Virus record (IMG/VR): IMGVR_UViG_2537562191_000021
Location: 1-23,605 of that record
From: a virus
Taxonomy: Duplodnaviria; Heunggongvirae; Uroviricota; Caudoviricetes
Length of the DNA stretch: 23,605 nucleotides
Direction: 5' to 3' (one strand)
Shown: positions 5,043 through 22,161 of the stretch, in pieces
How positions within the stretch are numbered: the stretch's first letter is position 1
How the letters are laid out: every line of letters starts with the position of its first letter
Program-made: the position numbers and the translations under genes
The notes under the pieces: generated by a model
The model's input: only the letters and a program-made list of their open reading frames with translations
Told to the model about the DNA's origin: nothing
Databases searched by the model: none

Positions 5043-5045
5043 ATT

Positions 5046-6424: not shown

Positions 6425-6438
6425 GCAGAGGAAAGGCT

Positions 6439-7089
6439 ATGAATTACATGGCAACGAAAGAGCTTTTTAAGTTCCTTCCCAAATACAAAGCTCACAAAAA
6501 CGTTAGTGCATCGAAAATCAAAAATGTTGTTATTTTCGGAGTAACTGATGCCCCACTTTGGGGCTGCATTGAACTCGTTGAACCAAAAGGGGCAACAGTT
6601 TGTGTTGACGCAATGTTTTTACAAAAACACCGACCAAAAACTGGCGGGTATCTGATCGTTTATGAAAACGGTTATCTGTTCTATGCCCCGGAGAAACCAT
6701 TTGAGGAATGCTATGGCCTGGTTAACGACGCCTCCGAAAATGGAACCACGGTCATCATTACGGATGACAACGGCGTGATGATTAATATTACCGGGAGTGT
6801 AACTATTTCTGCTGGTGGTACCACTACCCAGCAAGAGGAAATCGACCTTGAAGCAGCCGACTTTTCTGATGCGCTAATGTGGCTGAAAGAAGGAAAAAAT
6901 GTAGCTCGACGCGAGTGGAAAGGCGAAAAGCAATTCTGCTGGTTAGTTCTCGCTGGGAGCGTCAATTTACACGACATTCAGGTTCCTTATGGTGACCATT
7001 TCGTATTGAAAGATGCACAAAATATGGACAGCGTTTGGTTGCCGTCTGTTGATGATTTACTGGCTTGTGACTGGTTTGTAGTGGAGTGA
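6439..7089 (+). CDS. Hypothetical protein, 216 aa, with a Trp-rich C-terminal domain resembling DUF2829 (from memory)
   Basis: C-terminus DFSDALMWLKEGKNVARREWKGEKQFCWLV...WLPSVDDLLACDWFVVE. SD GAGGAAAGG before ATG 6439/6448. Confidence 0.55.
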   Translation: MNYMATKELFKFLPKYKAHKNVSASKIKNVVIFGVTDAPLWGCIELVEPKGATVCVDAMFLQKHRPKTGGYLIVYENGYLFYAPEKPFEECYGLVNDASENGTTVIITDDNGVMINITGSVTISAGGTTTQQEEIDLEAADFSDALMWLKEGKNVARREWKGEKQFCWLVLAGSVNLHDIQVPYGDHFVLKDAQNMDSVWLPSVDDLLACDWFVVE

Positions 7090-7095
7090 TTTGAC

Positions 7096-7863
7096 ATGGA
7101 AAGCACCAAAACAATTCAATACCGCTTGCGTAATGGCCTGCTGGTGGCTGTTAACGCCGACATGTCACTGCCGTTTGACACGATTGAACGCACTATCATG
7201 ACGTATCTCGGCTTTAATGAAGAGCTGAATGAAGAGCATGGCGTAGCTATATGGAGTGATGCAGACAGCGGCGTTCGTCGTTACATCACCGCCAGGGGCA
7301 AAGACTACTCTCTGGAAGAACTGTTTGCCCTTGCACAGTCTTTCGAATGTGTAGCATTAGACCTGTTTAATGATCCTGCTATAGCGCAACGACTTATACG
7401 CGAGCTTGGGCTATCCGTTACACCAATTATCTTTAAAAATGGCAGCCTGACTGGCACATGGCGCGTAGAACGCATCTCAAACTACCTTCCATATAACCGA
7501 CAGTTAAATGGAGTAATCTCCGGTGTTAATCAGCCCGTAGCGTGTGAAAATGTAAACCTGGTTGTCGCTGTTTTGGCAACCGCATGTCGTGTTATCGGTT
7601 TGGCTAAACAGGCATTTATTCATTTCCCAAATGGTGCAGAGGGTAGCGCAGAGATTATCGCGTGTGATTTCGAATTTACCTGGATGCTACGCGAATATCT
7701 GGACCAAACAGTGTTCCGCGCCGAAGAACTGGATATGTATATCACGTCAACGATTCCTGATGATGTGCGTGCTGAAGCAATCGCTACAGCAAGGGCCAAA
7801 TGCCGTGCGGCGATTGCAGAGCAGGCCAAAGAAGAAGTTAAGGAAGTGGCAGATGGCGACTAA
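7096..7863 (+). CDS. Hypothetical protein, 255 aa, partner of the degenerate terminase paralog
   Basis: Stop overlaps the downstream ATG by 11 nt (ATG 7853, stop 7861-7863), the same coupled arrangement as the packaging pair at 54-2554; no detectable similarity to the 54-1046 product. Confidence 0.55.
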   Translation: MESTKTIQYRLRNGLLVAVNADMSLPFDTIERTIMTYLGFNEELNEEHGVAIWSDADSGVRRYITARGKDYSLEELFALAQSFECVALDLFNDPAIAQRLIRELGLSVTPIIFKNGSLTGTWRVERISNYLPYNRQLNGVISGVNQPVACENVNLVVAVLATACRVIGLAKQAFIHFPNGAEGSAEIIACDFEFTWMLREYLDQTVFRAEELDMYITSTIPDDVRAEAIATARAKCRAAIAEQAKEEVKEVADGD

Positions 7864-8947
7864 GAGCAATATTTATAAAGATCCGCGCTGGCTGTCGCTG
7901 GTGGAGAAATATAAAGACAATTGGGTTCTGGCAGCAAAAGAATTGTTTGATATTGATTTAAGCCACCAGCAACAACAAATTGTTGAAGCTATACAGCCCA
8001 ATAATGCAAAAGCTACTGTCACAACTCCGCATGGGATCGGACGACCGCAAGTGCTTGCTGTTATTAGTACCCTTTATACGATTATGTATCCTGATTCCCG
8101 GACAGTAATTGTTTATCCAAAATCAAATGCTTGCAAAAAAGGAATTGTTGCATATGTGTGGCAATGTTGGGAGGCATTACTGAAAAAACAACCTTTTATC
8201 ATTGAGTATTTTAAGGTCGGTGATAGCGGTCTGATGTTCAATGAATTTTGGGGAATGTGCTTTTGTAACTACCGCCTTAACTATGAAGATAGCATTGCAG
8301 GTCACTACGCCGACCATCTGTTATTCATTATTGTGGATTCCGCACATATAAGCGATCGGGCATACAGTATTGTGTGGGCAAGCATGACTAGTGGTGATTC
8401 ACGCATATTGCTCACTTCAATTCCGTCACCAGAGGAAATAGGATTTTTTTATGATTCTCATCATGGGCGTGCTTTAGCTGAAGATAATCCGAGTGGTGTC
8501 TATAAAGCCATTAAGCTGAGTGCTGAGGATTCACCATTTATTACCCAAGAATATCTTGATCATTTTGCCGAAAGGTATGGCGGGCGAAATAGTGATGACT
8601 ACCGTCGTATGATTCTTGGTGAGTTCCCTGGTATTAGGGAGGCTGTTCTTGAATCAGATATGCCGAAAACAATGCGTTTTTCAATGCCTGATGGCAGTGA
8701 ATGGACAATGCCATTACGAGTGATAGCCAAGCATCATGCACAGCACCACGCCAAAAAACATGGCGTTACAACATTAGAGTGGTTGAAATCGCACACCATT
8801 CCACTCTTCACTGCAGATCACAATGCTATCGTTGAGTGGGCAAAAACAATTCCGTGGGGGAATGTCGCTGAATACGCCCACATGCTAAAACCGCCGAAAG
8901 ACAGGCAAGAAATTAGCTGGCTGACAGCAGAAAAAATCATTGAGTGA
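7853..8947 (+). CDS. Terminase-large-subunit ATPase-domain paralog with degenerate Walker motifs and no nuclease domain (pseudo-terminase)
   Basis: 364 aa from ATG 7853 (SD AAGGAAG). Shares DPRW, HQQQQI, YFYDSHH, DNP.G, L..E.SPF.T and GEFP blocks with the 1046-2554 protein, but Walker A reads TTPHGIGRPQV (Lys to Arg, Ser to Pro) and Walker B reads LLFIIVDSAH (catalytic Glu lost). The C-terminal nuclease half is replaced by an unrelated 90-aa His-rich tail. The longer ORF from 7562 is rejected. Confidence 0.7.
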   Translation: MATKSNIYKDPRWLSLVEKYKDNWVLAAKELFDIDLSHQQQQIVEAIQPNNAKATVTTPHGIGRPQVLAVISTLYTIMYPDSRTVIVYPKSNACKKGIVAYVWQCWEALLKKQPFIIEYFKVGDSGLMFNEFWGMCFCNYRLNYEDSIAGHYADHLLFIIVDSAHISDRAYSIVWASMTSGDSRILLTSIPSPEEIGFFYDSHHGRALAEDNPSGVYKAIKLSAEDSPFITQEYLDHFAERYGGRNSDDYRRMILGEFPGIREAVLESDMPKTMRFSMPDGSEWTMPLRVIAKHHAQHHAKKHGVTTLEWLKSHTIPLFTADHNAIVEWAKTIPWGNVAEYAHMLKPPKDRQEISWLTAEKIIE

Positions 8948-8953
8948 TAGTAG

Positions 8954-8984
8954 GAAGCCCGCTTGGTTGAGCGGGCTTCTTTTC
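8954..8984 (+). terminator. Intrinsic terminator closing the plus-strand island
   Basis: gaagcccgc-ttggttga-gcgggcttc, a 9-bp stem, followed by TTTTC; lies between the convergent pseudo-terminase and doc genes. Confidence 0.5.
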
Positions 8985-9363
8985 AAATATTGGAACCATA
9001 TAGTTCACGTAGTTTTTCCGCTACTGAAGATACGGGGATTTCACCAGTTGCAGCCCCCACCGCAAGTTCCACCAGCACGGGAGAATCATATACCTGTATA
9101 CCGTTACGGCGTAGAAATAGCAGCGCACTGTTTAGCGCGGTACGCTTATTGGCATCATTGAATATATGCCCTCTCGCAGTAGCCACCAGGTAGGTTGCGG
9201 AGACTTCGAAAAGGTCGGTGATCTCTTCGTAGGCAACTCTGGCCTGAACTCTCCCGATAATGGCCTCTGCCCTACCCGGATCTGACATTCCCGGCAGGCC
9301 GCCGTAGCGGCTTATATTCGCATCATGAAGCGCAATAAGTTCTTCCGGTGATATATGCCTCAT
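8983..9363 (-). CDS. doc: Doc toxin (Fic-fold kinase, death on curing)
   Basis: 126 aa, essentially co-linear with P1 Doc as remembered; Fic motif HIFNDANKR with His at position 66. Start overlaps the phd stop. Confidence 0.9.
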
Positions 9364-9584
9364 TATCGGTTAACCAGTTCCTTGTTGGTGGAGTCCAGGG
9401 TGTCAAACAGGGATGCAAATTCAGCATCCAGCGCCGCCTTTTTGTAGGCTTCGAAAGTAGCCTTGCTGACAATTACTGCTGGTTCACGGCCTCTGCGGGT
9501 GATTTCAACCTCTTCCCCGGCTTCAACATTGTTGAGCAATTCAGAAAGGTTGCCGCGCGCGGTACGGAAGTTAATGGACTGCAT
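9363..9584 (-). CDS. phd: Phd antitoxin (prevent host death)
   Basis: 73 aa from ATG 9584 ([15 protein letters not shown]...), SD GAGGTG; sits immediately upstream of doc with overlapping stop and start. Confidence 0.9.
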
Positions 9585-9592
9585 AAACACCT

Positions 9593-9615
9593 CGTGTACT
9601 CGTTATGTGTACACA
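9593..9615 (-). promoter_or_regulatory. Palindromic operator subsites in the phd-doc promoter region
   Basis: CGTGTACTCG (9593-9602, 8/10 palindromic) and TGTGTACACA (9606-9615, perfect 10-bp palindrome), directly upstream of the phd SD; matches the GTGTAC-type palindromes of the P1 phd-doc operator as remembered. Confidence 0.45.
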
Positions 9616-9656
9616 ATCATAAACTTCACAGGCATAAAGCACCAGCACTTTGCAGC

Positions 9657-10046
9657 TTAAATGACCGGACAATCATCAAACTCCCCACTTCGGGCATCAT
9701 TGATGACATGAGTGATCACACCAAAAACAGCATTACTACCCGTGTAACCATCGTCATCTACTGGTAACGCCTCTTTCTTCCCGGTGCTTAAATCCTCCAG
9801 GTGCTGGCGCGGATACTTTCGGTATCTCTTTATGCGATATTCACCCTCCATAGCGCACACAAGCAGCGAACCATCAACTGGAGTAAGCGAAGAATCAACC
9901 ACCAGCAAAGCACCCTGCAATATTCCCTCACGGTGATGGCTGTCTGCCGCCCGCATGAAGTATGTCGCTGATGGATGCCTGATTAGTTGCTGATCAAGAG
10001 AAATTCTGCTTTCAACATAGTCCGCCGCAGGAGAAGGGAAGCCCAT
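9657..10046 (-). CDS. humD: UmuD'-like S24 peptidase-family protein (HumD-like translesion synthesis accessory)
   Basis: 129 aa; N-terminus MGFPSPAADYVE and a LexA/UmuD-like C-terminal domain including ADSH (Ser-containing catalytic motif) and a basic Lys/Arg cluster; a LexA box lies 20 bp upstream. Confidence 0.75.
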   Translation of the reverse strand: MGFPSPAADYVESRISLDQQLIRHPSATYFMRAADSHHREGILQGALLVVDSSLTPVDGSLLVCAMEGEYRIKRYRKYPRQHLEDLSTGKKEALPVDDDGYTGSNAVFGVITHVINDARSGEFDDCPVI

Positions 10047-10065
10047 AGCGTTTTCACCTCAATAA

Positions 10066-10085
10066 TACTGTTCATTTATACAGTA
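10066..10085. promoter_or_regulatory. LexA (SOS) box upstream of humD
   Basis: TACTGTTCATTTATACAGTA: CTGT-N8-ACAG with the flanking TA/TA of the E. coli SOS-box consensus. Confidence 0.7.
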
Positions 10086-10133
10086 TACATTAAAGAGACA
10101 CCTTTGGTGCAAACGCGTTATCGCCGGTCATCA

Positions 10134-10418
10134 TTAACTCCTACATTCAGGGCAAGAGTTCCCTTCCGCAAAATAGGGGAAACTGCTATCAAGCTCATCA
10201 CACCATCTGCGATGGTCGTAGCACCAAAACGCCTCCCACGGTGCACGGAAATACTTCATCCACCAGGACACTCGATCAGGTATATCTGCTGGTGGCAGCT
10301 CTTCTGGCAATAATTTGCCTGATAATTCCCTTTCCGCCCGCGCCAGCATTCCTTTTAGACTCGCATTCTCTTTTTCAAGAATCTCTATGCGCGCCTGTAA
10401 CTCAGCTTTCGTTGGCAT
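10134..10418 (-). CDS. Hypothetical coiled-coil plus Cys-cluster (putative zinc-ribbon) protein, 94 aa
   Basis: Start taken at the internal ATG 10418 (MPTKAELQARIEILEKEN...), SD GAGG; C-terminal CYDHRRWC...CPEC. The upstream extension of the ORF is rejected. Confidence 0.45.
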   Translation of the reverse strand: MPTKAELQARIEILEKENASLKGMLARAERELSGKLLPEELPPADIPDRVSWWMKYFRAPWEAFWCYDHRRWCDELDSSFPYFAEGNSCPECRS

Positions 10419-11151
10419 GGTCCGCCTCATGTTTATCAGCCACCAGCGGCAATAAAGCCTTCGCCATTTCATGAACCAACATGGCATCAATGACGCCTAG
10501 CGTATGGCCCGGCTTAATCTTTAATGCGGCCTCAAGATAGCCTCTTTCCAGAGTGGTTTTTACGCTTTTCCTGGGCGCTTGTTGGGAACTATCCGGAAAA
10601 TCCGGATGGTTCCCAGCCTCATAAGCTACCCGCAACCAGTGCATGAATGTTTCCGCAGACACACAACCGCAGTCCACATCGATTTTCCCGCGTTGCTGTT
10701 CCAGCCATTGCTCAAAATCTAACTTGTAAGCCTTACTTTCAGACTTAACTTTCTGAGACGCTATGCGAGCTGCTTCATACTGTTCACGAGTGACAACCGA
10801 TGTAAACGCACTGCGATCAAGGTCACTGATATCGCAAATAATGCCATCAATGGAATAATTCTTTGATGATTGGTAATTTTTATGGCGCGTACCAAAAAGA
10901 ACCGTAGCGCGACTACTACCTGGCATCGTAATGGATAGATGGCAAAAATCTTTTCCATCAGGCCATCCACGCCCCTTAGATAATTCCTTCACTAACAAGT
11001 CAATCAGTGTCATAGCTTTACCATCCTTGCAAGGCGCTAAAGCTATTTTGGCAAGCTCCAATACTTCATCTGCTGTGTATCCAGCACCGTGACCATACAT
11101 TTCGATACGGGAAATAATATCTGAAATACGCTCTTTAGTGATTCTTGTCAT
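10402..11151 (-). CDS. Hypothetical protein, 249 aa, whose N-terminus belongs to the ITKER / ELA(R/K)IALA family shared with two other proteins in the window
   Basis: Start at ATG 11151 (MTRITKERISD...), SD AAGGA; ATGA overlap with the upstream stop. Confidence 0.55.
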   Translation of the reverse strand: MTRITKERISDIISRIEMYGHGAGYTADEVLELAKIALAPCKDGKAMTLIDLLVKELSKGRGWPDGKDFCHLSITMPGSSRATVLFGTRHKNYQSSKNYSIDGIICDISDLDRSAFTSVVTREQYEAARIASQKVKSESKAYKLDFEQWLEQQRGKIDVDCGCVSAETFMHWLRVAYEAGNHPDFPDSSQQAPRKSVKTTLERGYLEAALKIKPGHTLGVIDAMLVHEMAKALLPLVADKHEADHANES

Positions 11152-11357
11152 AGTTTTATTTCCTTGCATGGTTCGCCTTTACGGCAAACAGCTACACGGT
11201 CATTTCTTACATTAACCACAGTCACCGTTCCGTCATCGCATTGAATAACGATGAAAGGGTGTTCATTCTCTTTTGTGCAATGTTGCTGTTCCCCTGCTGT
11301 AACAGTGAGGGGAATTAATAAAATAATAATTACTGCGAATTTACTAAATGTTGCCAT
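11148..11357 (-). CDS. Small secreted protein, 69 aa (moron-like)
   Basis: N-terminal signal-peptide-like segment MATFSKFAVIIILLIPLTVTAG, then a Cys-containing mature region; stop overlaps the next start. Confidence 0.45.
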   Translation of the reverse strand: MATFSKFAVIIILLIPLTVTAGEQQHCTKENEHPFIVIQCDDGTVTVVNVRNDRVAVCRKGEPCKEIKL

Positions 11358-11381
11358 AGCAATCTTTCTTTCTGTTTTTCA

Positions 11382-11675
11382 TTATGGTTGAATCCAGTTA
11401 TCTTCAATAGCAATGCTCAATCTTTGTAACCATTCTGCTAATTTCAGCATTGCTTCTCTTTCGCTTAAACCACGAGGAAAATCATCAAGCGATATTGTTG
11501 GCTTGAAGTTTCCCAAATTATCCATTTCAACGGTCAGATTTTGCTCCAGAACGGTATTTCTTACGCGGCTATTGTGCCGAAGCAAATATACTGAACGTGA
11601 TTTATTGGTTTTGTGGTCGAACGTATATTCGGTAAGTATCATCTGACTTCCGCCATGATTATTACCGCGCCACAT
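11382..11675 (-). CDS. Hypothetical protein, 97 aa
   Basis: ORF with SD GGAG 5 nt upstream of ATG 11675. Confidence 0.45.
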   Translation of the reverse strand: MWRGNNHGGSQMILTEYTFDHKTNKSRSVYLLRHNSRVRNTVLEQNLTVEMDNLGNFKPTISLDDFPRGLSEREAMLKLAEWLQRLSIAIEDNWIQP

Positions 11676-11698
11676 AATTACTCCGTGTTAATTGAAAT

Positions 11699-11980
11699 TT
11701 AGCTATTAATCTTCACTTTTATCGCGAACACCTTTACCGGTTTATCACCGAAGTGTGGATGTGTGATTGTTTTTATTTCATATCCGTTATACGGGACGTC
11801 AATTCTGCGACTGAAGTCGTCGCGCTTCGGATATCCCTTTGTGATAATCAGGCGGTCATATTCCCGGAACATGATTCGCTTATTCCAGTAGTCATTACAC
11901 AGGCGATACTCTTCCGTTTTCTCCCCGCGAATCATGGCATCGAAGTATTCACCTTTGACGGCAAGTTGCAGGTTAGCCAC
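11699..11980 (-). CDS. Small ASCH-like domain protein, 93 aa (GTG start)
   Basis: KGEYFDAMIRGEKTEEYRL resembles the ASCH GxKTxExR motif; GTG start with SD GAGG; overlaps the upstream stop. Confidence 0.45.
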   Translation of the reverse strand: MANLQLAVKGEYFDAMIRGEKTEEYRLCNDYWNKRIMFREYDRLIITKGYPKRDDFSRRIDVPYNGYEIKTITHPHFGDKPVKVFAIKVKINS

Positions 11981-12533
11981 GGTTAACCTCCTGCGGCGGT
12001 TCCGGTAGCGGCATCCAGTCGGTTACATTGCGACTCTGTGTTTCGAAAAATTCATCACCATTGCGGACAATATCGAAAAACTCTCCGTCTCGATATTGCG
12101 CATAAAGAACGAATGCGCCATCACATAAAATAATTACGTGCTGACCATCATCTGGCATTCGCTCACTACAGCTTATCCAACCATCCGGAGTTACCGGAGA
12201 GTTGCCATTTACATCGAAGTTTGGCTCTGCGTCCTGAACCAGGAGGATGTAACCATTCTTGGCTGTATCAAGTTCTAACGCCTCGGTGACGGTGCCGAAA
12301 TAGCGATTACCTAAATCAGCATCACAAGTGCTTACATCAATGGAAACTTCCATGCCTTCGATTAATTCTGGTAAGTTGTAAGTTTGGTTTACAGGCTCTG
12401 CTTCCAGCGATGCCAGAGCAATTCGTGCCAGTTCTTCCGCTTCTTCTGCTGGCAGTACAACGTTGCTACCCGGTCCGTATGTTTCGCGCCACTGCTTGAT
12501 TGTCAGCAGTCGCTCTTTGGTAATAGTGATCAT
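11973..12533 (-). CDS. DUF551-domain protein with ITKER-family N-terminus
   Basis: 186 aa; N-terminus MITITKERLL...ELARIALASLEAEPV; C-terminus GWISCSERMPDDGQHVIIL...DWMPLPEPP is typical of DUF551 in enterobacterial prophages. Confidence 0.6.
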   Translation of the reverse strand: MITITKERLLTIKQWRETYGPGSNVVLPAEEAEELARIALASLEAEPVNQTYNLPELIEGMEVSIDVSTCDADLGNRYFGTVTEALELDTAKNGYILLVQDAEPNFDVNGNSPVTPDGWISCSERMPDDGQHVIILCDGAFVLYAQYRDGEFFDIVRNGDEFFETQSRNVTDWMPLPEPPQEVNRG

Positions 12534-13045
12534 GCCGCGTTTCCTTCTTTCTTATTAACAATTACACCGTCATATATTTCATTAAGGTGCCCTCTCAACT
12601 CCATGCGCCTTAATGCAGATAACATGTAATCGCATTCAACCTGCTTATTTCCAGTAAATGGCTTATCGTCAGGATTACCCCAACAGCAATTACCCTTGGG
12701 CCACCCATGTACTTTCCGTACTCTTCCGTTAACAACGTGAAGTAATCCCCAGCCAGGTGGTAAATCCTCAACTGAAATAATTCCCGGCTCACTAATAAAG
12801 AATCGCCAGTCGCCCATTCCAAGAGATGGATTTTTACGAAAACGCTTTTTTCTATCTGCCAACAAGTCAGCACGAGAACACTTCGCCTCTATCAGGCATG
12901 ATGCTGAATTTCTGAATCCCATAGCATCTGGCTGTTCTCCGGTACTGGTTACAGCTATAAAGCGGTCATGAAAACAAACCTTGAACCCGTTGCGCTTAAG
13001 GAACTTATACGCAATCTGACAGAGTTCGCGGTGTGTTAACGCCAT
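12530..13045 (-). CDS. Hypothetical protein, 171 aa, with a candidate PD-(D/E)xK nuclease motif
   Basis: Start at ATG 13045 (MALTHREL...), SD AAGGAGAG inside the duplicated leader; motif QPDAMGF-x10-LIEAKCS fits PD-x(n)-ExK. The N-terminal extension to 13117 is rejected. Confidence 0.5.
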   Translation of the reverse strand: MALTHRELCQIAYKFLKRNGFKVCFHDRFIAVTSTGEQPDAMGFRNSASCLIEAKCSRADLLADRKKRFRKNPSLGMGDWRFFISEPGIISVEDLPPGWGLLHVVNGRVRKVHGWPKGNCCWGNPDDKPFTGNKQVECDYMLSALRRMELRGHLNEIYDGVIVNKKEGNAA

Positions 13046-13418
13046 ATCACTCTCCTTTAGTGCGCAAGTGGTTTTTCCAGCGGTTTTGCGCCGCGCTGGG
13101 CTTTTTGCAAAAACCACAATCCATCATCCCGTAATATTTCATCAACCCCATCCGTCGGTTGCTGAGTCTCACCCACTGCCAGACGCCAGGAGCGTTTCTA
13201 CGAACTAACAGAATCTTTGCTTTACGGTTTTTCATCGCTTTGCTCTCCTGCGTCTCTTTGCTGCTCGTCGTGCCGCTGCAATACCGGTATGGCGGCGCTT
13301 TGGTGCCGGGATGATGTTGTCAGCCATCAGGACATGTGGCTTTGCAATTAGCGCAGAAGCCCAAAAACGAGTCGGGTACGGTAACAAGCCGAAAAATGCC
13401 ACACGCATTACTCATCTC
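13041..13418. repeat. Duplicated cassette leader, copy 1 (about 378 bp: unit A 13041-13236, unit B 13237-13418)
   Basis: Near-identical to 13972-14167 (unit A, 2 mismatches) and 14341-14521 (unit B, mismatches only at its distal end); read by direct comparison of the sequence. Confidence 0.9.
13047..13235 (-). CDS. Small basic protein, 62 aa, encoded inside the duplicated leader (copy 1)
   Basis: MKNRKAKILLVRRNAPGVWQWVRLSNRRMGLMKYYG...; SD AGGAGAG 8 nt upstream; stop TGA one nt before the ATG of the downstream gene. The two copies differ by one synonymous and one Lys/Arg change. Confidence 0.4.
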   Translation of the reverse strand: MKNRKAKILLVRRNAPGVWQWVRLSNRRMGLMKYYGMMDCGFCKKPSAAQNRWKNHLRTKGE

Positions 13419-13770
13419 CCTTACCCTGAAGCATGGCAGCGCGGCAGGCGTTCCAGCCATCAACATAATCAAACGTATTGCTATCGTCTGGCTCGATTTC
13501 ATCCGGCACTACCGGCTCTGGTTGGATAGTGACGTTGGCAAAGGCAGCACGCAAACCGGCCTTAATTTCCTCTACTTCATCAGCGCCTAGCGATGAATCT
13601 GACAATGCGTGATGGAATGCGTAAGCCATGTCGTCGTTTACTGCAACCGGTTCGGCTTCCAGTGATGCCAGCGCAATTCGTGCCAGTTCCATTTGTTCGC
13701 CACGGGTAAGCCCGTTATCAAGCGGATTTTTAATGAATAATTCGATACGTTCTTTGGTAATAGTGGTCAT
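13408..13770 (-). CDS. ITKER-family protein, 120 aa
   Basis: MTTITKERIELFIKN...QMELARIALASLEAEPVAV; shares nucleotide-identical patches with 11973-12533 over the conserved N-terminal motifs. Confidence 0.55.
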   Translation of the reverse strand: MTTITKERIELFIKNPLDNGLTRGEQMELARIALASLEAEPVAVNDDMAYAFHHALSDSSLGADEVEEIKAGLRAAFANVTIQPEPVVPDEIEPDDSNTFDYVDGWNACRAAMLQGKGDE

Positions 13771-13976
13771 TTGTTAATCCTCAAAACTTTATGCCCGGGC
13801 GCAAAAGCACGTGTTTTGTCTTTACTTATTCGCCACCCGTCTTTACGGGCCTCTTTTGCACAACCAGACCATGACGTACCGATATACTCACCGAAGTCTG
13901 GCACTGGATATACACCTTCCGTACACTGGCGGCAGTCACAATAGAGATGCATGGTGTAACTTGCGGCAATAGCCAT
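13767..13976 (-). CDS. Small Cys-rich protein, 69 aa (putative zinc-binding)
   Basis: Start at ATG 13976 behind the duplicated SD; CDCRQC plus downstream Cys residues. The N-terminal extension to 14048 is rejected. Confidence 0.45.
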   Translation of the reverse strand: MAIAASYTMHLYCDCRQCTEGVYPVPDFGEYIGTSWSGCAKEARKDGWRISKDKTRAFAPGHKVLRINK

Positions 13977-13977
13977 A

Positions 13978-14166
13978 TCACTCTCCTTTAGTGCGCAAAT
14001 GGTTTCTCCAGCGGTTTTGCGCCGCGCTGGGCTTTTTGCAAAAACCACAATCCATCATCCCGTAATATTTCATCAACCCCATCCGTCGGTTGCTGAGTCT
14101 CACCCACTGCCAGACGCCAGGAGCGTTTCTACGAACTAACAGAATCTTTGCTTTACGGTTTTTCAT
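13978..14166 (-). CDS. Small basic protein, 62 aa (copy 2)
   Basis: Identical to the 13047-13235 product except Lys to Arg at one position; same stop-start coupling to the downstream gene. Confidence 0.4.
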   Translation of the reverse strand: MKNRKAKILLVRRNAPGVWQWVRLSNRRMGLMKYYGMMDCGFCKKPSAAQNRWRNHLRTKGE

Positions 14167-14339
14167 CTTACTGCGTACCCTTTCTTCCGCCTGTTCTGTG
14201 ACGCAGTAGGCTTACGCTTTGCGGCAAAAGCCACCTGACCAAATGGATGGAGTACCGCTATCTTATGGTTGCTAATAACCAGCTCCACCACACGCACAGG
14301 TCGCTGTAAAAAAAGTCGTTTTGCCTTACGGTTTTTCAT
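14163..14339 (-). CDS. Small basic protein, 58 aa, divergent paralog of the 62-aa ORF (below the ORF-track threshold)
   Basis: Hand translation: MKNRKAKRLFLQRPVRVVELVISNHKIAVLHPFGQVAFAAKRKPTASQNRRKKGYAVR; uses the unit-B SD AGGAGAG; its stop TGA overlaps the ATG of the 62-aa ORF (ATGA). Confidence 0.35.
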   Translation of the reverse strand: MKNRKAKRLFLQRPVRVVELVISNHKIAVLHPFGQVAFAAKRKPTASQNRRKKGYAVR

Positions 14340-14511
14340 CGCTTTGCTCTCCTGCGTCTCTTTGCTGCTCGTCGTGCCGCTGCAATACCGGTATGGCGGC
14401 GCTTTGGTGCCGGGATGATGTTGTCAGCCATCAGGACATGTGGCTTTGCAATTAGCGCAGAAGCCCAAAAACGAGTCGGGTACGGTAACAAGCCGATACA
14501 TGCCACACGCA

Positions 14512-14991
14512 TTACTCACCTTCTTTGATGCGAATGCCAGCGGCGCGTGGCACATTAACTTCCACGATGCGCACAGTTGGTTTGTACATCTCAATCGCTG
14601 TCAGCCAGTCAGCGCCGGTCATATGCTTTTCTGCATCGCCATTAGTCCATTGAACCGGCACGCCAATAGCTTTCATCGCAATTTCTATTTCCCCGGCAAT
14701 GGCGCTTTTCCCGCAACCAGTAAAACCAGAGACAACGACAAGAACTTCGCCTTTGGCTGGTTTTATTTCCCGCGCCTCCACCTCTGCAATTCGGCACATA
14801 GCATCGATATTTGTGTCTTCCAGGCGTTTAACTTCATCCAATAATGCCAACGCGATATCTGGCGAAAAGTGCTTCATAAAATCGTTAAGCGCATTAATTC
14901 GCTGATCGAAAGGCATTACAGGCGCTTCACCAGCAATTTTTGTTTTTTCAGCAATTTCACGAAGCTTTTGATAGTCAATTTTGTTTGTCAT
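14512..14991 (-). CDS. Hypothetical protein, 159 aa: Ead/Ea22-like N-terminus plus a short P-loop-like segment
   Basis: N-terminus MTNKIDYQKLREIAEKT; VVVSGFTGCGKS resembles a Walker A loop, but the protein is too short for a complete NTPase fold. Confidence 0.45.
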   Translation of the reverse strand: MTNKIDYQKLREIAEKTKIAGEAPVMPFDQRINALNDFMKHFSPDIALALLDEVKRLEDTNIDAMCRIAEVEAREIKPAKGEVLVVVSGFTGCGKSAIAGEIEIAMKAIGVPVQWTNGDAEKHMTGADWLTAIEMYKPTVRIVEVNVPRAAGIRIKEGE

Positions 14992-15866
14992 GCCACTACC
15001 TCTTCGAATCTCAACTCCAATTGGTCACCCCAGATTTCACATGATTCGGAACACGAACCAGTATCAAACCGCTTGGCCTGCACCATCGCCTGATACAAAT
15101 TTCTGTAGTCGCTGTCGGCATACATTCTGGCAATCCCGTCAAGCGTCAGGTGACCACGGTACATAACGTCTTTACCTGTTCTGCGATGACCATCCCTGAC
15201 GTGTTTGCCTGTAACCAGCTCATTAAAAATTCGCATCAGACCAGGTTCGTCTTTACATGCAAGCCCCAGCTTTTGCGTTGACTTTTTGATGCAAAAAACA
15301 CAGTTCCCGAGGTGCTCCGGGATTTGCAAATCAAAAGGTTGTTTTCGCCACCACCGGATAACATCCGACTTATCAAAATCTGACAGCTCGGCAAGATACC
15401 GGACGCCCGGTTTCGGTTTCAGCCTACGGGGTTCGTCCGCACGAATACCCAGCCATGTGATGTAATTCCCTCGCCCAAAATGGTCATCGCAATATTTCGT
15501 GAAAGGGGTGAGTTTTAGCCTGTCAGTACAGAACGCGCCGCCGATGTATGGCGTACCGTACTTTTTAACCATGTCCATAAACGGTTTAAGCACCGGCATT
15601 CGCGTCTGAATATCCTTTGGTTCCCATTCCGTATAACCATTTGGCTGCCCAAGTTCTGGATTTATATCGACCTGCAACACCGTTAGCGGTACATTCCAGA
15701 ACTTCACAACCTCACGAATAAAGCGATACGTCAGAGGATGTTCACAGCCGGTATCCATAAAAATGAAATGGACGCTAGCGCCAGCTTTTCGCTGTGCTTC
15801 CATCAGATGAACGAGATAAGCCGATGTTCGTCCACCTGAAAAGCTGACGACTTGATGCATACTCAC
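14988..15866 (-). CDS. PAPS-reductase-like PP-loop ATP pyrophosphatase family protein
   Basis: 292 aa; N-terminal PP-loop SFSGGRTS; C-terminal Cys pairs (NCVFC, SCSESC) suggest metal or Fe-S binding. Confidence 0.7.
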   Translation of the reverse strand: MSMHQVVSFSGGRTSAYLVHLMEAQRKAGASVHFIFMDTGCEHPLTYRFIREVVKFWNVPLTVLQVDINPELGQPNGYTEWEPKDIQTRMPVLKPFMDMVKKYGTPYIGGAFCTDRLKLTPFTKYCDDHFGRGNYITWLGIRADEPRRLKPKPGVRYLAELSDFDKSDVIRWWRKQPFDLQIPEHLGNCVFCIKKSTQKLGLACKDEPGLMRIFNELVTGKHVRDGHRRTGKDVMYRGHLTLDGIARMYADSDYRNLYQAMVQAKRFDTGSCSESCEIWGDQLELRFEEVVA

Positions 15867-15869
15867 GGT

Positions 15870-16562
15870 TTATTCCTGAACGCGCTTAAACTCGATTACC
15901 CATACCCACGGGTTAGATAGCCAGTTATCCTGCCCGTAAATACTGCGCCAGATATCACCAAAACCAACGCGATAAACGGCTTCCGGCGGCGTAATTTTGT
16001 ACATCGCCGGAGATGCGCCTTCTGCTTTAGCATCTGCCTCGCTCATATCACGCAGCCGTTCCACACGCACGTCGGTAATTTCCAGCAAAATGCGCGATGC
16101 CCAGCGCGGCATGTGAATTGATGGACACCACCCGCCATCAAATTTTTCATTCACAGTGTGAGGTTTCCAGTCGGCATCATCGGGTATCGACCACAAGCCG
16201 TAATCACCCGGCTTTTGCTCACAACTGGCCCGATAAATCCTTGCTGCGTTCTTCTCATCGCCACGACAAAGGTTGTCGTTCCAGTCCACACTGCAACCAT
16301 CCTCATTGCCTAATATCGCCCACGCCTCACGGACCCATATGCGATCACCAACGTTACCGAACGGGCATAAACCATGTTCAGGTGCATCCATAACGTGGGT
16401 ATAGACACCATTGCGTTTCTTGGTCGGTTTACGGATAACCAGGCAGTTATCGGCCCTGACATTTTTTACAGGTCGGCGAGTCTGCGTCTTCCTTCCTTCG
16501 AGGATGGCCCTGACCATCTCATCGTTAAAAATCATCCCGCGTTCTTTCATTTTTTGATCCAC
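15870..16562 (-). CDS. ASCH-domain protein, 230 aa
   Basis: N-terminal MIFNDEMVRAILEGRKTQTRRP (GxKTxTRR) and C-terminal VWVIEFKRV resemble ASCH proteins such as YqfB (remembered: ILAGRKTITIR ... YVIEFKCL). Confidence 0.5.
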   Translation of the reverse strand: MDQKMKERGMIFNDEMVRAILEGRKTQTRRPVKNVRADNCLVIRKPTKKRNGVYTHVMDAPEHGLCPFGNVGDRIWVREAWAILGNEDGCSVDWNDNLCRGDEKNAARIYRASCEQKPGDYGLWSIPDDADWKPHTVNEKFDGGWCPSIHMPRWASRILLEITDVRVERLRDMSEADAKAEGASPAMYKITPPEAVYRVGFGDIWRSIYGQDNWLSNPWVWVIEFKRVQE

Positions 16563-16566
16563 CTCA

Positions 16567-17562
16567 TCAGTTATTGAACGTGATCACTCCGCGCTCGATG
16601 GCGAAGTCGAAAAGCTGGTTAGCTGCTACGTAAAGGCGTATGCCATGTGCTTTTTCCCATGCCCGGACATCGTTTTCTGCGCTTCTGGCGCAGTCATCGC
16701 AAAGAGGAACAGCCCAGCGGTCGTGTTCGTTTAACGAGCGGGCGCGGTACATGAATGGGTGATTAACCTTGCCGCCGCAGCCTACACACGGGCGAGACAC
16801 CACAAACCGGAGATAAGCCGGGCTTTTTCCGAGTAAGGTTTTTGGACGGCGCATATATAGGAGGCCAGAATCTTCATCGACGGACAGATTGACGATCTGC
16901 TCTGCGGAAATATCCACCAGCTCGCGGGTACTATGCTCCCAGGTAATATCCGACTCTTTCAGAGTGCCGGTAGGGATTTCAGTTTTTGGCTGACAAAATG
17001 CAATGCGACCAGCTTCATCAGGCAGTTCGTCTTTAAGATTCCGGCGAATGGCCCAAAAGGTGAGTTCAACCATGCTCAGATCGCGATCTGGCGGAAGTTT
17101 TAACTCGCTGGCAGCCCAGTTCATAATCCAGTTGGCGCGATTCAGTGACAGTTGGTCTTCCAGCTTGCCGTATCCCTTCATCATGTATTCCGCATCATGC
17201 TTCCAGCACAGGCGAACGGCAGAACCGTTATAGAAATGGGTGGTTAACTGGTGGCTGCAATCGCGCTTATCATGCGCCTGGCAATCGTGAATGTTGGTGC
17301 TAACCCAGTGAACGAGAGAATCCTCACCACCTAACGCGTTAAATACGCGCTCACTTTGAAAAAAGGGTGCCAGTGACTGGTTGGTAACCAGTGAATAATT
17401 CAGGTCAACGACACCATCAGGGGTGTTTTCAGCCTGTTCACGCGGCAATGGGGATATAAGAAAACGACGTCCTGCGCCGATGTAATTGCTGGTGGGCTTA
17501 TCTACAGGAAAGACAGCCACACCAGTTTCATTTACGACATATGGGGTGATTATTGCACTCAT
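16567..17562 (-). CDS. DUF968-like protein, 331 aa, with a C-terminal Cys cluster
   Basis: C-terminus CVGCGGKVNHPFMYRARSLNEHDRWAVPLCDDCAR; DUF968 assignment is from memory of lambdoid-prophage proteins. Confidence 0.5.
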   Translation of the reverse strand: MSAIITPYVVNETGVAVFPVDKPTSNYIGAGRRFLISPLPREQAENTPDGVVDLNYSLVTNQSLAPFFQSERVFNALGGEDSLVHWVSTNIHDCQAHDKRDCSHQLTTHFYNGSAVRLCWKHDAEYMMKGYGKLEDQLSLNRANWIMNWAASELKLPPDRDLSMVELTFWAIRRNLKDELPDEAGRIAFCQPKTEIPTGTLKESDITWEHSTRELVDISAEQIVNLSVDEDSGLLYMRRPKTLLGKSPAYLRFVVSRPCVGCGGKVNHPFMYRARSLNEHDRWAVPLCDDCARSAENDVRAWEKAHGIRLYVAANQLFDFAIERGVITFNN

Positions 17563-17603
17563 AATGCATACCGACTCTGTTTTGTTCCGAGCGGTAAAAT
17601 AAT

Positions 17604-17616
17604 ATGTTAGAAAACT
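17604..17616 (-). promoter_or_regulatory. Recurrent motif copy (reverse complement AGTTTTCTAACAT), exact
   Basis: Lies in the 98-bp gap between the phosphatase gene and the DUF968 gene; a degenerate second copy (core TTCTAAC at 17627-17633) lies 10 bp away in the opposite orientation. Confidence 0.4.
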
Positions 17617-17660
17617 AAAATCAATGTTCTAACGCGTTTTTGAGTGCGTAAGTGATTTGA

Positions 17661-18353
17661 TCAGACTTTAAGCTGCCCTCCCTTCACCTGCATTAGCGTC
17701 AGATTTCCGCAAAAAACCGCGCCCGTGTCTATGTAGTGCTGATTCCAGTATGCTTTTGGTCTTCGTACCGGTGTGTGCCCAAAGATAAAGCGATCTGCGC
17801 CTGTAATTTCTCCACCAATGCCATCTATCGAATCACCGACGCGACTGCGCGACCAGACAACATCAAAAAGCGACACATCCTTACCGAACTGGTACTCTCC
17901 ACCTGGATAGTCGGCATGGGCTATAACGATAGTTTCATGCCCGATGTTCAACTCAATGATATATGGCAGACGCTTTACCAGCTCCACCAGCGCCCTGGCT
18001 AATATTTCCTGATCAGCGTCCAGCATGAAGAACCATTGTCCGCCATTCATTAGCCAGTTATTCACGTTGCCATCAGGACTTAACGCATCGATCATTAATC
18101 GCTCGTGGTTTCCCATAACCGACCGAAACCAGGGCATCTGCAATAGCTCCAGGCATTCAACATTTTCGGTGCCGCGATCGATAAGGTCGCCAACCGATAT
18201 CAGTAAATCCTGCGCCGGGTCAAAATCCACACGATGGAGTTCGGACATCAGTCTGGTGAAGCAACCATGCAGATCACCAACAACCCATATGTTTCTGTAG
18301 CCAGAACCATCAATACGGCTATATAAATTCACTTCATGCATAGCCTGTGTCAT
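17661..18353 (-). CDS. Ser/Thr protein phosphatase (lambda PPase / NinI-like metallophosphoesterase)
   Basis: 230 aa; [49 protein letters not shown] are co-linear with phage lambda Ser/Thr phosphatase as remembered. Confidence 0.85.
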
Positions 18354-18661
18354 GCGGCAACCTTCTCACGCAGCCAGATACAAACCGGACCATCTTCAGT
18401 GTCATGAATAGAGCCAACAAACCAGCCTTCACCCTCTGGTCGCTCCGGTTCCCAGGCGGCAATATCGGGACCAGCTGCGTCCAGATCAAAATCATCTTCA
18501 TCCATACTGCGAATAGTCCACTGAAGATTATTTCCCTTCATCCAGGCGTCAAATTCCTCAGTGGAAATATATTCACGGCCTGCGCAAAACTTTTCATACT
18601 CCGGATGTGTCCAGCAGCCATATTCATCACGTTCTACCGGCATTTCTTTAATTGTGCTCAC
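18350..18661 (-). CDS. Hypothetical acidic protein, 103 aa
   Basis: ORF overlapping both neighbours by 4 nt within the operon. Confidence 0.45.
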
Positions 18662-18882
18662 TCTTCATCCTCCAAGTCGGCAACGGCCTCCATCACATCA
18701 GAACCGCGAATAAACTCAAAAGCACGGCAAGCCATTTCAAACACCTGTTGTTCTTGCGGATGCGGTGACTCCCAATACTTAAAACCAGGTCGATGCTCGT
18801 AACCCATCATGGAATAAAAATCGCCAGCAAGTTCAATCGCGGCATCAACAAGTTCGCGATTTGTCATCGTCTGTTCTGTCAT
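18658..18882 (-). CDS. Hypothetical acidic protein, 74 aa
   Basis: ORF with 4-nt overlaps to both neighbours. Confidence 0.4.
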   Translation of the reverse strand: MTEQTMTNRELVDAAIELAGDFYSMMGYEHRPGFKYWESPHPQEQQVFEMACRAFEFIRGSDVMEAVADLEDEE

Positions 18883-19154
18883 TTTGTTTTCTCCTGTCTG
18901 AACATCACTATCATCAGGTCGCCTTTTGTCGCTATTCTGGCTGTTGTGCCTGGTTCAATGCGGCTAAGCTCAAATGCGTCATAGAACGCTTCTAATGCCT
19001 TCTGGCGTAGTTCCTGTTTGCGCCGTTTTTTCCACTCTTTTAGGAAAATGGAACCCAGCCATCGCCAGGTACGGGACATGATGTAAAGCCAACCGAAAAG
19101 TGCCAGACCGGTATTTAGGGCCGTATCGATTGTTATCGTGGTGTCGATATTCAC
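18879..19154 (-). CDS. Hypothetical small membrane protein, 91 aa
   Basis: Hydrophobic segment ALNTGLALFGWLYIM followed by a basic stretch; coupled overlaps. Confidence 0.4.
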   Translation of the reverse strand: MNIDTTITIDTALNTGLALFGWLYIMSRTWRWLGSIFLKEWKKRRKQELRQKALEAFYDAFELSRIEPGTTARIATKGDLMIVMFRQEKTK

Positions 19155-19399
19155 TGTGGTGGCTCCTGCTTTTCTGCCTTCAATACCATGCGAGAACCAT
19201 CATCCAGCTCCCAATTAATTTCACCGCCTTCAGCCATGACTAGATGCCAAACGAGTTGTGCGGCCTCGTTGGTTACATCACGACCGCGATCATTGCCGAC
19301 ACGACGTTTTGTTCCATCCCCTAAGTCACGCATTTTTGCCAACACGATGGTTTTTGATAGCGGTGAAAAACCAAGCTGTAGTCGTGCTGAATTGCTCAC
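19151..19399 (-). CDS. Hypothetical protein, 82 aa
   Basis: ORF in the operon with 4-nt overlaps. Confidence 0.4.
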   Translation of the reverse strand: MSNSARLQLGFSPLSKTIVLAKMRDLGDGTKRRVGNDRGRDVTNEAAQLVWHLVMAEGGEINWELDDGSRMVLKAEKQEPPQ

Positions 19400-20067
19400 T
19401 GTTTGCCTCCTTTGCGAATCCGGGCGGCTAACTCGTCACATATGTGCGTCAAAGAGAAAAGTTTGATTGATGGGTGTTCGCGCATCATCTCCAATCCCTG
19501 CGCCCGGACTTCAGCCAGGAAAGCATCAGTGGTTGGCGTTTCAGGTATCTGTCTCCTCATCCGTTCTACTGCATGATTGAACCCGAAGTCTTCCGCGAGA
19601 GATACGTCATCCATATTGTCATTGTCATCCTCAATATCCCGTGGTTCTGGAATTGCAGACTTTATTCCCGCATTCTCCGCCGCCAGCGCCGCGCGATTAC
19701 CCTCCAGCTCTGCAATGCGCTGTTTTGCGGTATCAAGTTCAATCGATAATTTTTCCAACTGCTCTTTATGCTTCTTGTATTCCTGATATGCGTGCCAGGA
19801 CTGACCTTTGCGCACACTATCAGTAATATCAGTAATCTGTTCTGGTGTTAGCGTAGTCAGTGGCTGTGCTGGGAAAATCAGCACTTTCCCGGAATCCCAA
19901 TCAAAACCAGCGTGAATTGACTGAACCTCAATTGAAGGTGTTGAACCAATGCTGCCAGGCGAATGAACAACGATCGTTACATCCATATCGCGACGATGGC
20001 TGTGGTTATTGGACAAAATACGATTCACCAACTCAGAAAATTTGGAGAATTTCATGCGGAGCCTCAA
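19396..20067 (-). CDS. Ead/Ea22-like protein
   Basis: 223 aa; central coiled coil (AKQRIAELEGNRAALAAENAG) and TDAFLAEVRAQG motif, shared with 20471-20974. Confidence 0.55.
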   Translation of the reverse strand: MRLRMKFSKFSELVNRILSNNHSHRRDMDVTIVVHSPGSIGSTPSIEVQSIHAGFDWDSGKVLIFPAQPLTTLTPEQITDITDSVRKGQSWHAYQEYKKHKEQLEKLSIELDTAKQRIAELEGNRAALAAENAGIKSAIPEPRDIEDDNDNMDDVSLAEDFGFNHAVERMRRQIPETPTTDAFLAEVRAQGLEMMREHPSIKLFSLTHICDELAARIRKGGKQ

Positions 20068-20474
20068 TATGCAAAATAGACAGTTGCCACACCGTTATAG
20101 TGATCAAACGATACGGCGTTTACTTCATAGCTGGCAGGAAGCTTCGAGCCGAGAACATATCCGGGCCACGTTTTCCATGGAATTTCTCTACTCTCACTAT
20201 CCCCATATACCGTACATCCAAGCGAACCTACAGCCTCGTCAGAACGTTTGCCGCATGTTATGAAACCTATATTTTTCTTGCTGGCCTTAATGGCGATTGG
20301 GTGAACACTGGCTGATGCATTGGCAGCACGCTGTGACTGTTGGTTTGCGATATTCGCAGAGTTCGCAGCAGCTACAGCAGCCGTGGTCGCGGCGGTAGAT
20401 GCCACAATAACTGCTGAAGCCTGCGCCTGTTGGGTAATGGTCAGCAATGCCGCCACAAAAATCATCTTCTTCAC
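20064..20474 (-). CDS. Secreted protein, 136 aa, with signal peptide
   Basis: MKKMIFVAALLTITQQAQA then an Ala/Thr-rich linker and a Cys-containing C-terminal domain. Confidence 0.5.
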   Translation of the reverse strand: MKKMIFVAALLTITQQAQASAVIVASTAATTAAVAAANSANIANQQSQRAANASASVHPIAIKASKKNIGFITCGKRSDEAVGSLGCTVYGDSESREIPWKTWPGYVLGSKLPASYEVNAVSFDHYNGVATVYFAY

Positions 20475-20974
20475 TTGTCAGCTCCTTTGCGAATCTGTTC
20501 CGCCCATTCTTCAAGGGATTTCTCCGCATATTCACCGGACAGGCCATCAATCGGGTGCGATTCATTAGCCAACTCTTCTTTCGCTGACAGAATCATGCGC
20601 GTAACGTCGAAAACTTCACGTAAAGATTTATTGATAAATCCGTGGTTGAAAGCAGCAGCAAGACGGCTTGCGGTATAGTTAATCCCCTCGTTGCGAGCCT
20701 CCGCACGAATTTCAGCCAGGAAAGCATCGGTGACTGGCATATTTCCTGTTGCCTTCATGGCCTCCAAAATAACCAGAACGCCATCTCTCCCTACCTCCTC
20801 GCAGATAACCTCGGTGTTGTCGCCAACAACATCGCAGAATGCCTGAACTGCTTTACGAGCAAGTGCATTCTCCGCCGCCAGCGCAGCACACGCTTTCTCA
20901 AGTCGGGAAATTTCCGTTACATACTCAGCGTTACGCTCTGCCAGTTGTGCGGGCGTTAAACCTTCAGACTTCAT
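20471..20974 (-). CDS. Ead/Ea22-like protein (paralog)
   Basis: 167 aa; coiled coil (LEKACAALAAENALARKA) and TDAFLAEIRAEA motif. Confidence 0.55.
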   Translation of the reverse strand: MKSEGLTPAQLAERNAEYVTEISRLEKACAALAAENALARKAVQAFCDVVGDNTEVICEEVGRDGVLVILEAMKATGNMPVTDAFLAEIRAEARNEGINYTASRLAAAFNHGFINKSLREVFDVTRMILSAKEELANESHPIDGLSGEYAEKSLEEWAEQIRKGADK

Positions 20975-22044: not shown

Positions 22045-22082
22045 GTCCTCCAAACAGTTATCAGGAATGATATTAATGTTTT

Positions 22083-22095
22083 GTGTTAGAAAATC
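22083..22095 (-). promoter_or_regulatory. Recurrent motif copy (reverse complement GATTTTCTAACAC) in the divergent control region
   Basis: Core TTCTAACA intact; lies between the minus-strand array start (22044) and the Ref-like gene start (22162). Confidence 0.35.
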
Positions 22096-22161
22096 AATTT
22101 TGAATATCTAACCATTTTGATCAATCATAGAAAAATCGCTGAAAAGTAAGAGGCAGCCATC

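Follow-up and report, generated by a model that had tools for sequence, protein, structure and literature searches.

The 23,605-nt stretch analyzed here (IMG/VR virus record IMGVR_UViG_2537562191_000021, positions 1 to 23,605; hereafter the window, to which all coordinates refer) carries two direct repeats on its minus strand in which very small open reading frames (ORFs) stand immediately ahead of different downstream genes. The question raised by this locus is whether such a constant sequence followed by variable genes constitutes a dedicated cassette system or a product of ordinary phage gene exchange. The first-pass annotation had favored the former, describing a constant leader with a small basic ORF and a variable cargo, a term that we retain for the downstream genes. 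The observations below are probably best explained by a block of small genes encoding basic accessory proteins, placed at a generic gene joint and rearranged by homologous exchange; to speak of a 'cassette system' is to read too much into ordinary mosaicism, mediated by gene junctions, in a phage accessory operon whose genes are tightly coupled.

The repeats occupy positions 13041-13422 (copy 1) and 13972-14526 (copy 2), on the minus strand as are all genes of the block and its neighbors described below, and share 97-99% identity. With 2 differences over 196 nt (13041-13236 versus 13972-14167) and 6 differences over 207 nt (13216-13422 versus 14320-14526), this identity is far above chance, and the earlier claim of two nearly identical copies is upheld. 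Copy 1 consists of ORF58a-1, ORF62-1 and their junctions and is 100% identical to pCFSAN004176P_03, and copy 2 consists of ORF58a-2, ORF58b, ORF62-2 and their junctions and shows 99.95% identity to plasmid pE2863-2. In comparison with copy 1, copy 2 contains an insert of 173 nt flanked by a 21-nt direct repeat, GATGAAAAACCGTAA(A/G)GCAAA, whose two occurrences form the insert boundaries at the start of ORF62-2 (GATGAAAAACCGTAAAGCAAA, 14147-14167) and at the start of ORF58b (GATGAAAAACCGTAAGGCAAA, 14320-14340). As described in the first-pass annotation, this insert encodes a 58-aa paralog coupled by ATGA (ORF58b, 14339-14163), and both copies begin inside the last codons of an upstream gene, with homology starting ~10-15 nt within its 3' end. 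The designation of the block as a leader did not survive, because the 5' half of each copy encodes a further gene, ORF58a, which had been overlooked.

In copy 1, ORF58a-1 (13232-13408; 58 aa, isoelectric point (pI) 12.0, with an Arg-rich C-terminus; phrog_13831, RefSeq WP_001261533-type) is followed by ORF62-1 (13047-13235; 62 aa, pI 11.3; phrog_1380, RefSeq WP_000797279.1), a member of subtype A of what we call the MKNRKAK family. In copy 2, a different ORF58a allele (ORF58a-2, 14336-14512; 58 aa, MRVACIG...) is followed by ORF58b (14163-14339; 58 aa, pI 12.0; MKNRKAK subtype B, phrog_1380), which lies within the insert, and by ORF62-2 (13978-14166; subtype A). The ORF58a proteins conform to the pattern MRVA(F/C)(F/I)GLL...RRRRAKR with a KRRHTGIAAARRAAKRRRRAKR tail; their start overlaps the upstream stop (TAATG) and their stop overlaps the next start (ATGA), and ORF58b overlaps both of its neighbors by ATGA. 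ORF62-2 is distinguished from ORF62-1 by K54R and by a single synonymous change in a His codon, which agrees with the earlier statement that their differences are synonymous or conservative. It was also correctly noted that the stop codon of each 62-aa ORF lies 1 nt before the ATG of its cargo, a 171-aa gene downstream of copy 1 (12530-13045; phrog_631/9263) and a Cys-rich 69-aa gene downstream of copy 2 (13767-13976; phrog_926). The upstream neighbor of copy 1 is a 120-aa acidic gene with a DUF551-protein-like N-terminus (13408-13770), ending in ...QGKGDE*, and that of copy 2 is an Ead/Ea22-like 159-aa gene (14512-14991), ending in ...IKEGE*.

The coding status of the small ORFs was examined across loci gathered from IMG/VR with four MKNRKAK family queries, comprising 188 unique contexts and 90 distinct proteins of 58-64 aa that fall into seven subtypes. 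A 58-64-aa ORF is kept in 183 of these 188 contexts, the exceptions being four truncated forms and one read-through. In a codon alignment of 109 distinct MKNRKAK DNA versions, variation falls on third positions precisely at the conserved stretches of the protein (MKNRKAKxL, SN, G and K..SAAQNRWKNH). For the annotated frame, the ratio of nonsynonymous to synonymous polymorphism (pN/pS) came to 0.16 at the N-terminus, 0.29 at the C-terminus, 0.68 in the middle and 0.55 overall, as against ~1 in four of the other five frames; the antisense frame that shares third positions gave 0.67, in line with expectation, and the terminal values are robust because these regions align gap-free. For ORF58a, 61 distinct DNA versions gave a position diversity of 10.6 at third codon positions versus 5.5 and 5.3 at the other two, the indels were solely in-frame (7, 5 and 1 codons) and the start was ATG or GTG. 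Additionally, when 1.84 billion representative proteins were searched with a profile, only 47 matched, all of them small phage ORFs of the MKNRKAK family. In a scan of genome contigs for the family, pattern matches were obtained but none held up in tblastn, probably owing to the low sensitivity of a 62-aa query. The distant members, which sit among other hypothetical phage genes, keep NRKA(K/R)xL, (R/K)(I/V)SN(R/H)(R/K) and SAAQNRWKNH despite having other tails and neighbors; the conservation of SAAQNRWKNH thus serves the protein itself, beyond any use of its codons as a ribosome-binding sequence for the next gene. On this comparative evidence, the reading of ORF58a and the MKNRKAK ORFs as genuine coding genes is well supported, and the suggestion that the small ORF is coding has stood up both to the search for stops and frameshifts in homologous copies and to the examination of selection across homologs.

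An N-terminally extended isoform of the cargo proteins, starting from a GTG located 72 nt upstream and in frame with both cargo genes, was considered and rejected, as substitutions favor the ORF62 frame; an open stretch of 24 codons ahead of the cargo genes is not unusual by chance. The 933W record contains such a form (L0068), in which the Cys-rich gene is stretched 24 codons upstream into ORF62.

Comparison with profile databases placed the small proteins in families that have so far been left without a role. ORF62 matched the 62-position profile of phrog_1380 over residues 1-62 (E=1e-40), as did ORF58b over residues 1-58 (E=6.5e-23), and ORF58a matched the 58-position profile of phrog_13831 over its full length (residues 1-58, E=2.7e-39). 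Both families are listed in PHROGs with unknown function, and the Prokaryotic Genome Annotation Pipeline (PGAP) calls ORF58a (WP_001261533.1) and ORF62 (WP_000797279.1) hypothetical proteins. No match was found for ORF58a, ORF62, ORF58b, the 171-aa protein or the Cys-rich 69-aa protein in Pfam, NCBIfam or PADLOC, and a PDB sequence-profile search gave no match at E<=10. The 171-aa protein had been described as PD-(D/E)xK-like, which we could not confirm from sequence matches in Pfam, NCBIfam or PDB; it exhibited a weak PHROG match to a 'DNA repair protein' family. A full-text literature search found no paper mentioning the MKNRKAK peptide.

Existing records handle these genes in several ways. 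PGAP leaves ORF58b unannotated in pE2863-2 (locus L427, 3165-3335), and in several genomes its labels are 'frameshifted' for the 171-aa gene and 'partial' for the 120-aa gene. The databases also hold MKNRKAK fusions produced by deletion or frameshift (P0068, P0080, P0091 and P0095; phrog_9263), in which the partner is a protein like ORF69 of the window (11357-11148), the 171-aa gene, the Cys-rich gene or a DUF551-type protein. In a further fused form, P0094, the extra C-terminal domain has no Pfam match.

The block ends, in both copies, in the sequence AAAGGAGAGTGAtATGGC, found at 13041-13058 before the 171-aa gene and at 13972-13989 before the Cys-rich gene, which comprises the K-G-E codons, a Shine-Dalgarno (SD) sequence, the stop, 1 nt and the ATG of the cargo. 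The junction AAAGGAGAGTGAnATGGC thereby supplies the upstream K-G-E and stop and an AAGGAG located 6 nt before the next ATG, with stop and start 1 nt apart. When the junction motif AAAGGAGAGTGAnATG was sought with <=2 mismatches, it was found in 180 unique contexts, combining 40 distinct upstream sequence contexts (MKNRKAK ORFs and a range of Ea22-like and DUF551-like C-termini) with 24 distinct downstream gene starts, many of which are M-A. In about half of the unique contexts, Ea22-like or DUF551-like genes ending in ...IKGE* or ...GKGE* are joined to the same cargo via AAAGGAGAGTGAtATGGC. Among loci fetched by the cargo proteins, a small ORF precedes the 171-aa gene in ~18 unique contexts and an Ea22-like gene (...AGIRIKGE*, with the same junction) precedes it in ~29; for the Cys-rich gene the corresponding numbers are ~22 and ~24. 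These proportions are indicative and not population estimates, because sampling started from the small ORF or from these two cargo genes. A small ORF can itself follow the junction, in the form MATNNRKAK.... Because the junction AAAGGAGAGTGAnATGGC belongs to both coding sequences, unrelated proteins in operons of this type have the ending ...(I/T/G)KGE* in common, and M-A is a frequent start among the genes behind them.

The block is part of a minus-strand operon of about 25 genes, extending from ~21.9 kb to ~10.4 kb, in which most neighboring genes overlap by 4 nt and the gaps are -4, -1 and +1 nt. The MKNRKAK ORFs occur in ATGA-joined arrays of one to three (A, B-A, C, D, E, C-D, G-D, B-D, A-D, B-C, B-A-D and G-E), and at least 10 unrelated genes follow these arrays, mostly through AAAGGAGAGTGAtATGGC. 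This cargo includes the 171-aa gene, the Cys-rich gene of 69-71 aa, a DUF4014-like gene of 72 aa and genes of 73, 87, 121, 150/216, 104, 63 and 140/230 aa. As a description, the modular cassette proposed earlier thus holds in that a constant block precedes at least 10 unrelated genes; the coupling and the junction, however, are not specific to the small ORF, and the duplication does not call for a dedicated cassette mechanism. Judged from these comparisons, the junction is a generic joint of this operon type and the small-ORF block an optional module there. Because almost all gene pairs of the operon overlap, the cargo would not depend on the small ORF, and the comparative data on cargo that lacks it also argue against such a dependence.

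In this operon, stop and start codons overlap or abut from one gene to the next, and we propose that the junction AAAGGAGAGTGAnATGGC would serve as a homology patch where recombination reshuffles genes, from which the appearance of a constant leader with variable cargo would follow. Mosaic breaks coincide with the junction at many loci, and for this window the endpoints lie in shared genes (13995-13749 and 12430-12150). The proteins of the block have a pI of 11-12 and most likely work in trans, as small accessory proteins that bind nucleic acids and are produced early from the operon. In the MKNRKAK family the terminal motifs are constant and the middle is variable, which may reflect changing targets.

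The origin of the double arrangement can be traced through the closest relatives of the window. Positions 17500-13749 best match plasmid pE2863-2 (99.95%), positions 13995-12150 best match pCFSAN004176P_03 (99.7%) and positions 12430-10400 again best match pE2863-2 (99.8%). The gene order in pE2863-2 is Ea22-like, 58a, 58b, 62, Cys69 and DUF551, and that in the other lineage is Ea22-like, Cys69, the 120-aa gene, 58a, 62, the 171-aa gene and DUF551. A patch of ~1.3 kb (12430-13749), which brings in copy 1, is absent from pE2863-2 and matches pCFSAN004176P_03-type relatives. One crossover lies in the shared Cys69 region (13995-13749), the left crossover zone lying in or near the Cys-rich gene, and the other in the 5' portion of the DUF551 gene that both lineages share (12430-12150), a stretch that includes D3, a 44-nt repeat. 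This segment-wise comparison shows that two homologous crossovers suffice for the arrangement of the window: the block is present twice because two related phage-plasmids recombined, of which one had it ahead of the Cys-rich gene and the other had it downstream of that gene. A tandem duplication in situ was rejected in favor of this exchange between two relatives, given the segment matches to pE2863-2 and pCFSAN004176P_03.

The ORF58a alleles MRVAFFG and MRVACIG circulate separately in other phages, and the double arrangement is rare, being found in 2 of 157 unique contexts; the second case is an O111:H8 prophage (L266) whose first copy begins MATNNRKAK directly behind the generic junction. 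Inserts of the type seen in copy 2 are common elsewhere, with B-A arrays in 37 unique contexts, and the 173-nt insert has as its boundaries the conserved 21-nt starts of the paralogs, which fits a putative unequal exchange between these starts. The 44-nt direct repeat (12391-12434 and 13646-13689, 89% identity), which encodes the ...ELARIALASLEAEP... N-terminal segment common to the 120-aa and 186-aa DUF551-type proteins, falls where the recombinant patch has its right-hand crossover zone. Another part of the operon contains a 41-nt direct repeat (19497-19537 and 20698-20738, 83% identity).

Several observations weigh against this account and are gathered here. The middle of the MKNRKAK protein is weakly constrained (pN/pS 0.68), and the alignment behind this value was made on the protein, which favors the annotated frame in the variable middle. 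In two database members, P0054 and P0060, the middle is altered by a double frameshift that is compensated, as would be expected if selection acted on read-through and not on the protein. The supplements of a ribosome-profiling paper on enterohemorrhagic Escherichia coli Sakai contained no match for the small ORFs. AlphaFold predicted an alpha-beta3-alpha fold with moderate confidence (predicted local distance difference test score 78, predicted template modeling (TM) score 0.50), and comparison of the predicted model with known folds yielded no match. Nucleic-acid binding, the most likely activity of the block proteins, is judged from charge and genomic context only. Furthermore, the crossovers of this window lie in the Cys-rich and DUF551 genes and not in the 18-nt junction, and the recombinogenic role of the junction is therefore deduced only from its combinatorial distribution.

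The weak constraint in the middle and the two frameshifted members, which keep the ends and the frame and scramble what lies between, also speak for a cis-acting coupling device, that is, for small ORFs that would mainly deliver terminating ribosomes to the next gene and act as a portable expression leader. The geometry would suit this role, with stop and start 1 nt apart or overlapping as ATGA at every joint, and the same ORF is found ahead of at least 10 unrelated genes. Nevertheless, a strong SD (AAGGAG) belonging to the cargo gene itself stands 6 nt before the ATG in every case, and in about half of the contexts the cargo lacks the small ORF and has the identical junction behind Ea22-like genes. 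Coupling by overlap is general across the operon, and the amino-acid motifs are under purifying selection, also in distant members with other tails. We thus regard a coupling device as unlikely. It also appears decidedly unlikely that the block is a dedicated portable module, whose very basic proteins, with constant terminal motifs and a fast-evolving middle, would bind the mRNA or DNA of the operon at the junction and boost expression or exchange of the following gene, or would diversify as anti-host or anti-defense nucleic-acid binders. If true, either version would make them small proteins with a new fold and function, widespread among E. coli prophages and phage-plasmids.

A self-spreading mini-cassette, in which the block would promote its own insertion at gene junctions, for instance through its basic proteins acting on DNA, would account for a block that is optional at a fixed type of joint and that is found in lambdoid prophages and P1/D6-like plasmids, including 603 of 5426 complete E. 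coli genomes (~11%; 413 chromosomal and 299 plasmid places). The ea22 gene of 933W has, moreover, been described as split by a gene insertion at this position, starting at the block (PMC8614690). Yet the block holds no recombinase, nuclease or attC-like structure, its boundaries coincide with ordinary junction homology, and homologous exchange in flanking shared genes fully explains the arrangement of the window, which renders the mini-cassette very improbable.

A toxin related to HicA or to double-stranded RNA-binding domains (dsRBD), with the downstream gene as antitoxin or partner, was suggested by the predicted alpha-beta-beta-beta-alpha topology and size, which resemble HicA and dsRBD, and by an SNH motif in subtypes B and G. 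Against it, the hhalign probability versus E. coli HicA was 0.2%, a HicA-like match in BFVD had a probability of 0.14 and a TM score of 0.2, the His is absent from most subtypes and the downstream partners are mutually unrelated. The HicA/dsRBD fold was rejected on these grounds of sequence-profile and structural similarity, and we consider a toxin hardly credible. A hicA/hicB pair lies ~0.8 kb from the block in plasmid p13P477T-4 (L263, 4117-4761), a proximity that we take as coincidental.

A conserved non-coding element, be it a regulatory RNA or a DNA site with incidental ORFs, would agree with the 92-100% DNA conservation of the repeat across many phages and with the 933W annotation, which leaves most of the repeat without a gene, but it is next to excluded by the codon-position pattern, the frame-specific pN/pS and the restriction of indels to in-frame ones, as well as by the lack of any Rfam match, folding excess, promoter or terminator signal. 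The searches in question comprised Rfam 15 over 12900-14700 (no match in gathering mode or at E<=5) and RNA folding of the element (z=+0.68, no excess folding energy), on which a structured or small RNA was rejected. They further covered promoter-like sites on the minus strand of 11000-17800 (none found) and terminator-like sites within either repeat copy on both strands (none found). Terminator-like sites on the plus strand occur between the copies at 13712 and 13836, the total of 6 versus 7.6 expected being at chance level, and an internal promoter or terminator was likewise rejected.

The preferred reading, a small-gene block at a generic joint, finds its nearest counterpart in the boundary or linker sequences of lambdoid phages (the modular theory of Susskind and Botstein). 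In both, a short stop/SD/start sequence lies between unrelated genes in many combinations, within temperate enterobacterial phages that carry recombination functions. PMC2327257 refers to Clark et al. 2001, a study of HK620, for lambdoid mosaicism via short conserved flanking sequences, and shows that Red recombination tolerates diverged homology. The junction described here differs in that it sits in an exo-xis-type accessory operon and in P1/D6-like phage-plasmids, and in that it also fixes the last upstream residues K-G-E and the first downstream residues M-A; a limited literature search found no description of this particular junction. The block likewise resembles the small early genes next to ea22, where both the number and the type of the genes that follow ea22 vary and an action on transcription or nucleic acids is suspected, but ORF58a and the MKNRKAK proteins are much more basic and exhibited no sequence or fold similarity to them in the searches made. 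Translationally coupled operons (ATGA/TAATG, termination-reinitiation) share the stop/start geometry at every joint, although the coupling here belongs to the whole operon and not to the small ORFs. Integron gene cassettes are alike in presenting a variable gene behind a constant sequence and in forming arrays, whereas in this case no integrase adjoins the array, no attC-like folded site is present (z=+0.68) and the joints are ordinary coding and SD sequence; domain searches found no recombinase domains in the neighboring genes. The block is not integron-like, nor is it a known RNA, a known defense system or a recognizable toxin-antitoxin pair.

With regard to its broader context, the window derives from a D6/P1-like phage-plasmid, and its positions 1-11000 and 16000-23605 share 95-99% identity with phage D6. 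The operon is flanked on one side by pacA/pacB, c1, a tyrosine recombinase, phd/doc and humD, and on the other by a Ref-like endonuclease, icd and a C4 antisense RNA. Its content is of the lambdoid exo-xis or 'ea' type, with an Ead/Ea22-like gene, DUF551, ASCH and a PAPS-reductase-like gene, and the same type of block is present in the exo-xis ('ea') region of lambdoid and Shiga toxin (Stx) prophages, directly after Ead/Ea22-like genes. In total, 79 phage records contain the repeat unit, including 933W, VT2-Sakai, Stx2-86 and RCS47; in 933W it fills a largely unannotated stretch between L0069 (ea22-like) and L0068. The PAPS-reductase-like gene (292 aa, 14988-15866, minus strand), located just upstream of the Ea22-like gene, matched SspD in PADLOC (E=1.8e-13) and, weakly, DndC/BrxP, and may have a function related to DNA modification or defense; among this gene, the small ORFs and both cargo genes, it was the only one with a PADLOC match (SspD/DndC). 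On the plus strand, Rfam matches at 23287-23497 to isrK (62.7 bits, 23287-23365) and to the C4 antisense RNA (77.1 bits, 23410-23497) correspond to the immunity (immI-type) region of P1/D6-like phages.

Together, these observations give no sign of a new kind of genetic system, and what they portray is ordinary mosaic phage evolution. The carriers include Stx-converting prophages (933W and VT2-Sakai) and P1/D6-like phage-plasmids, often with resistance genes. The region between ea22-like genes and their downstream neighbors is protein-coding and should be annotated accordingly, because in several records it is blank, is partly taken up by an extended cargo ORF or lacks ORF58b. As a very basic family without a known fold, the uncharacterized small proteins are reasonable targets for a small functional study. 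The K-G-E/stop/ATG-GC junction, in turn, offers a clean and countable example of accessory-gene shuffling between lambdoid phages and P1-like plasmids, and the remaining interest of the locus lies in this neat generic gene joint and in the basic small-protein family that accompanies it.

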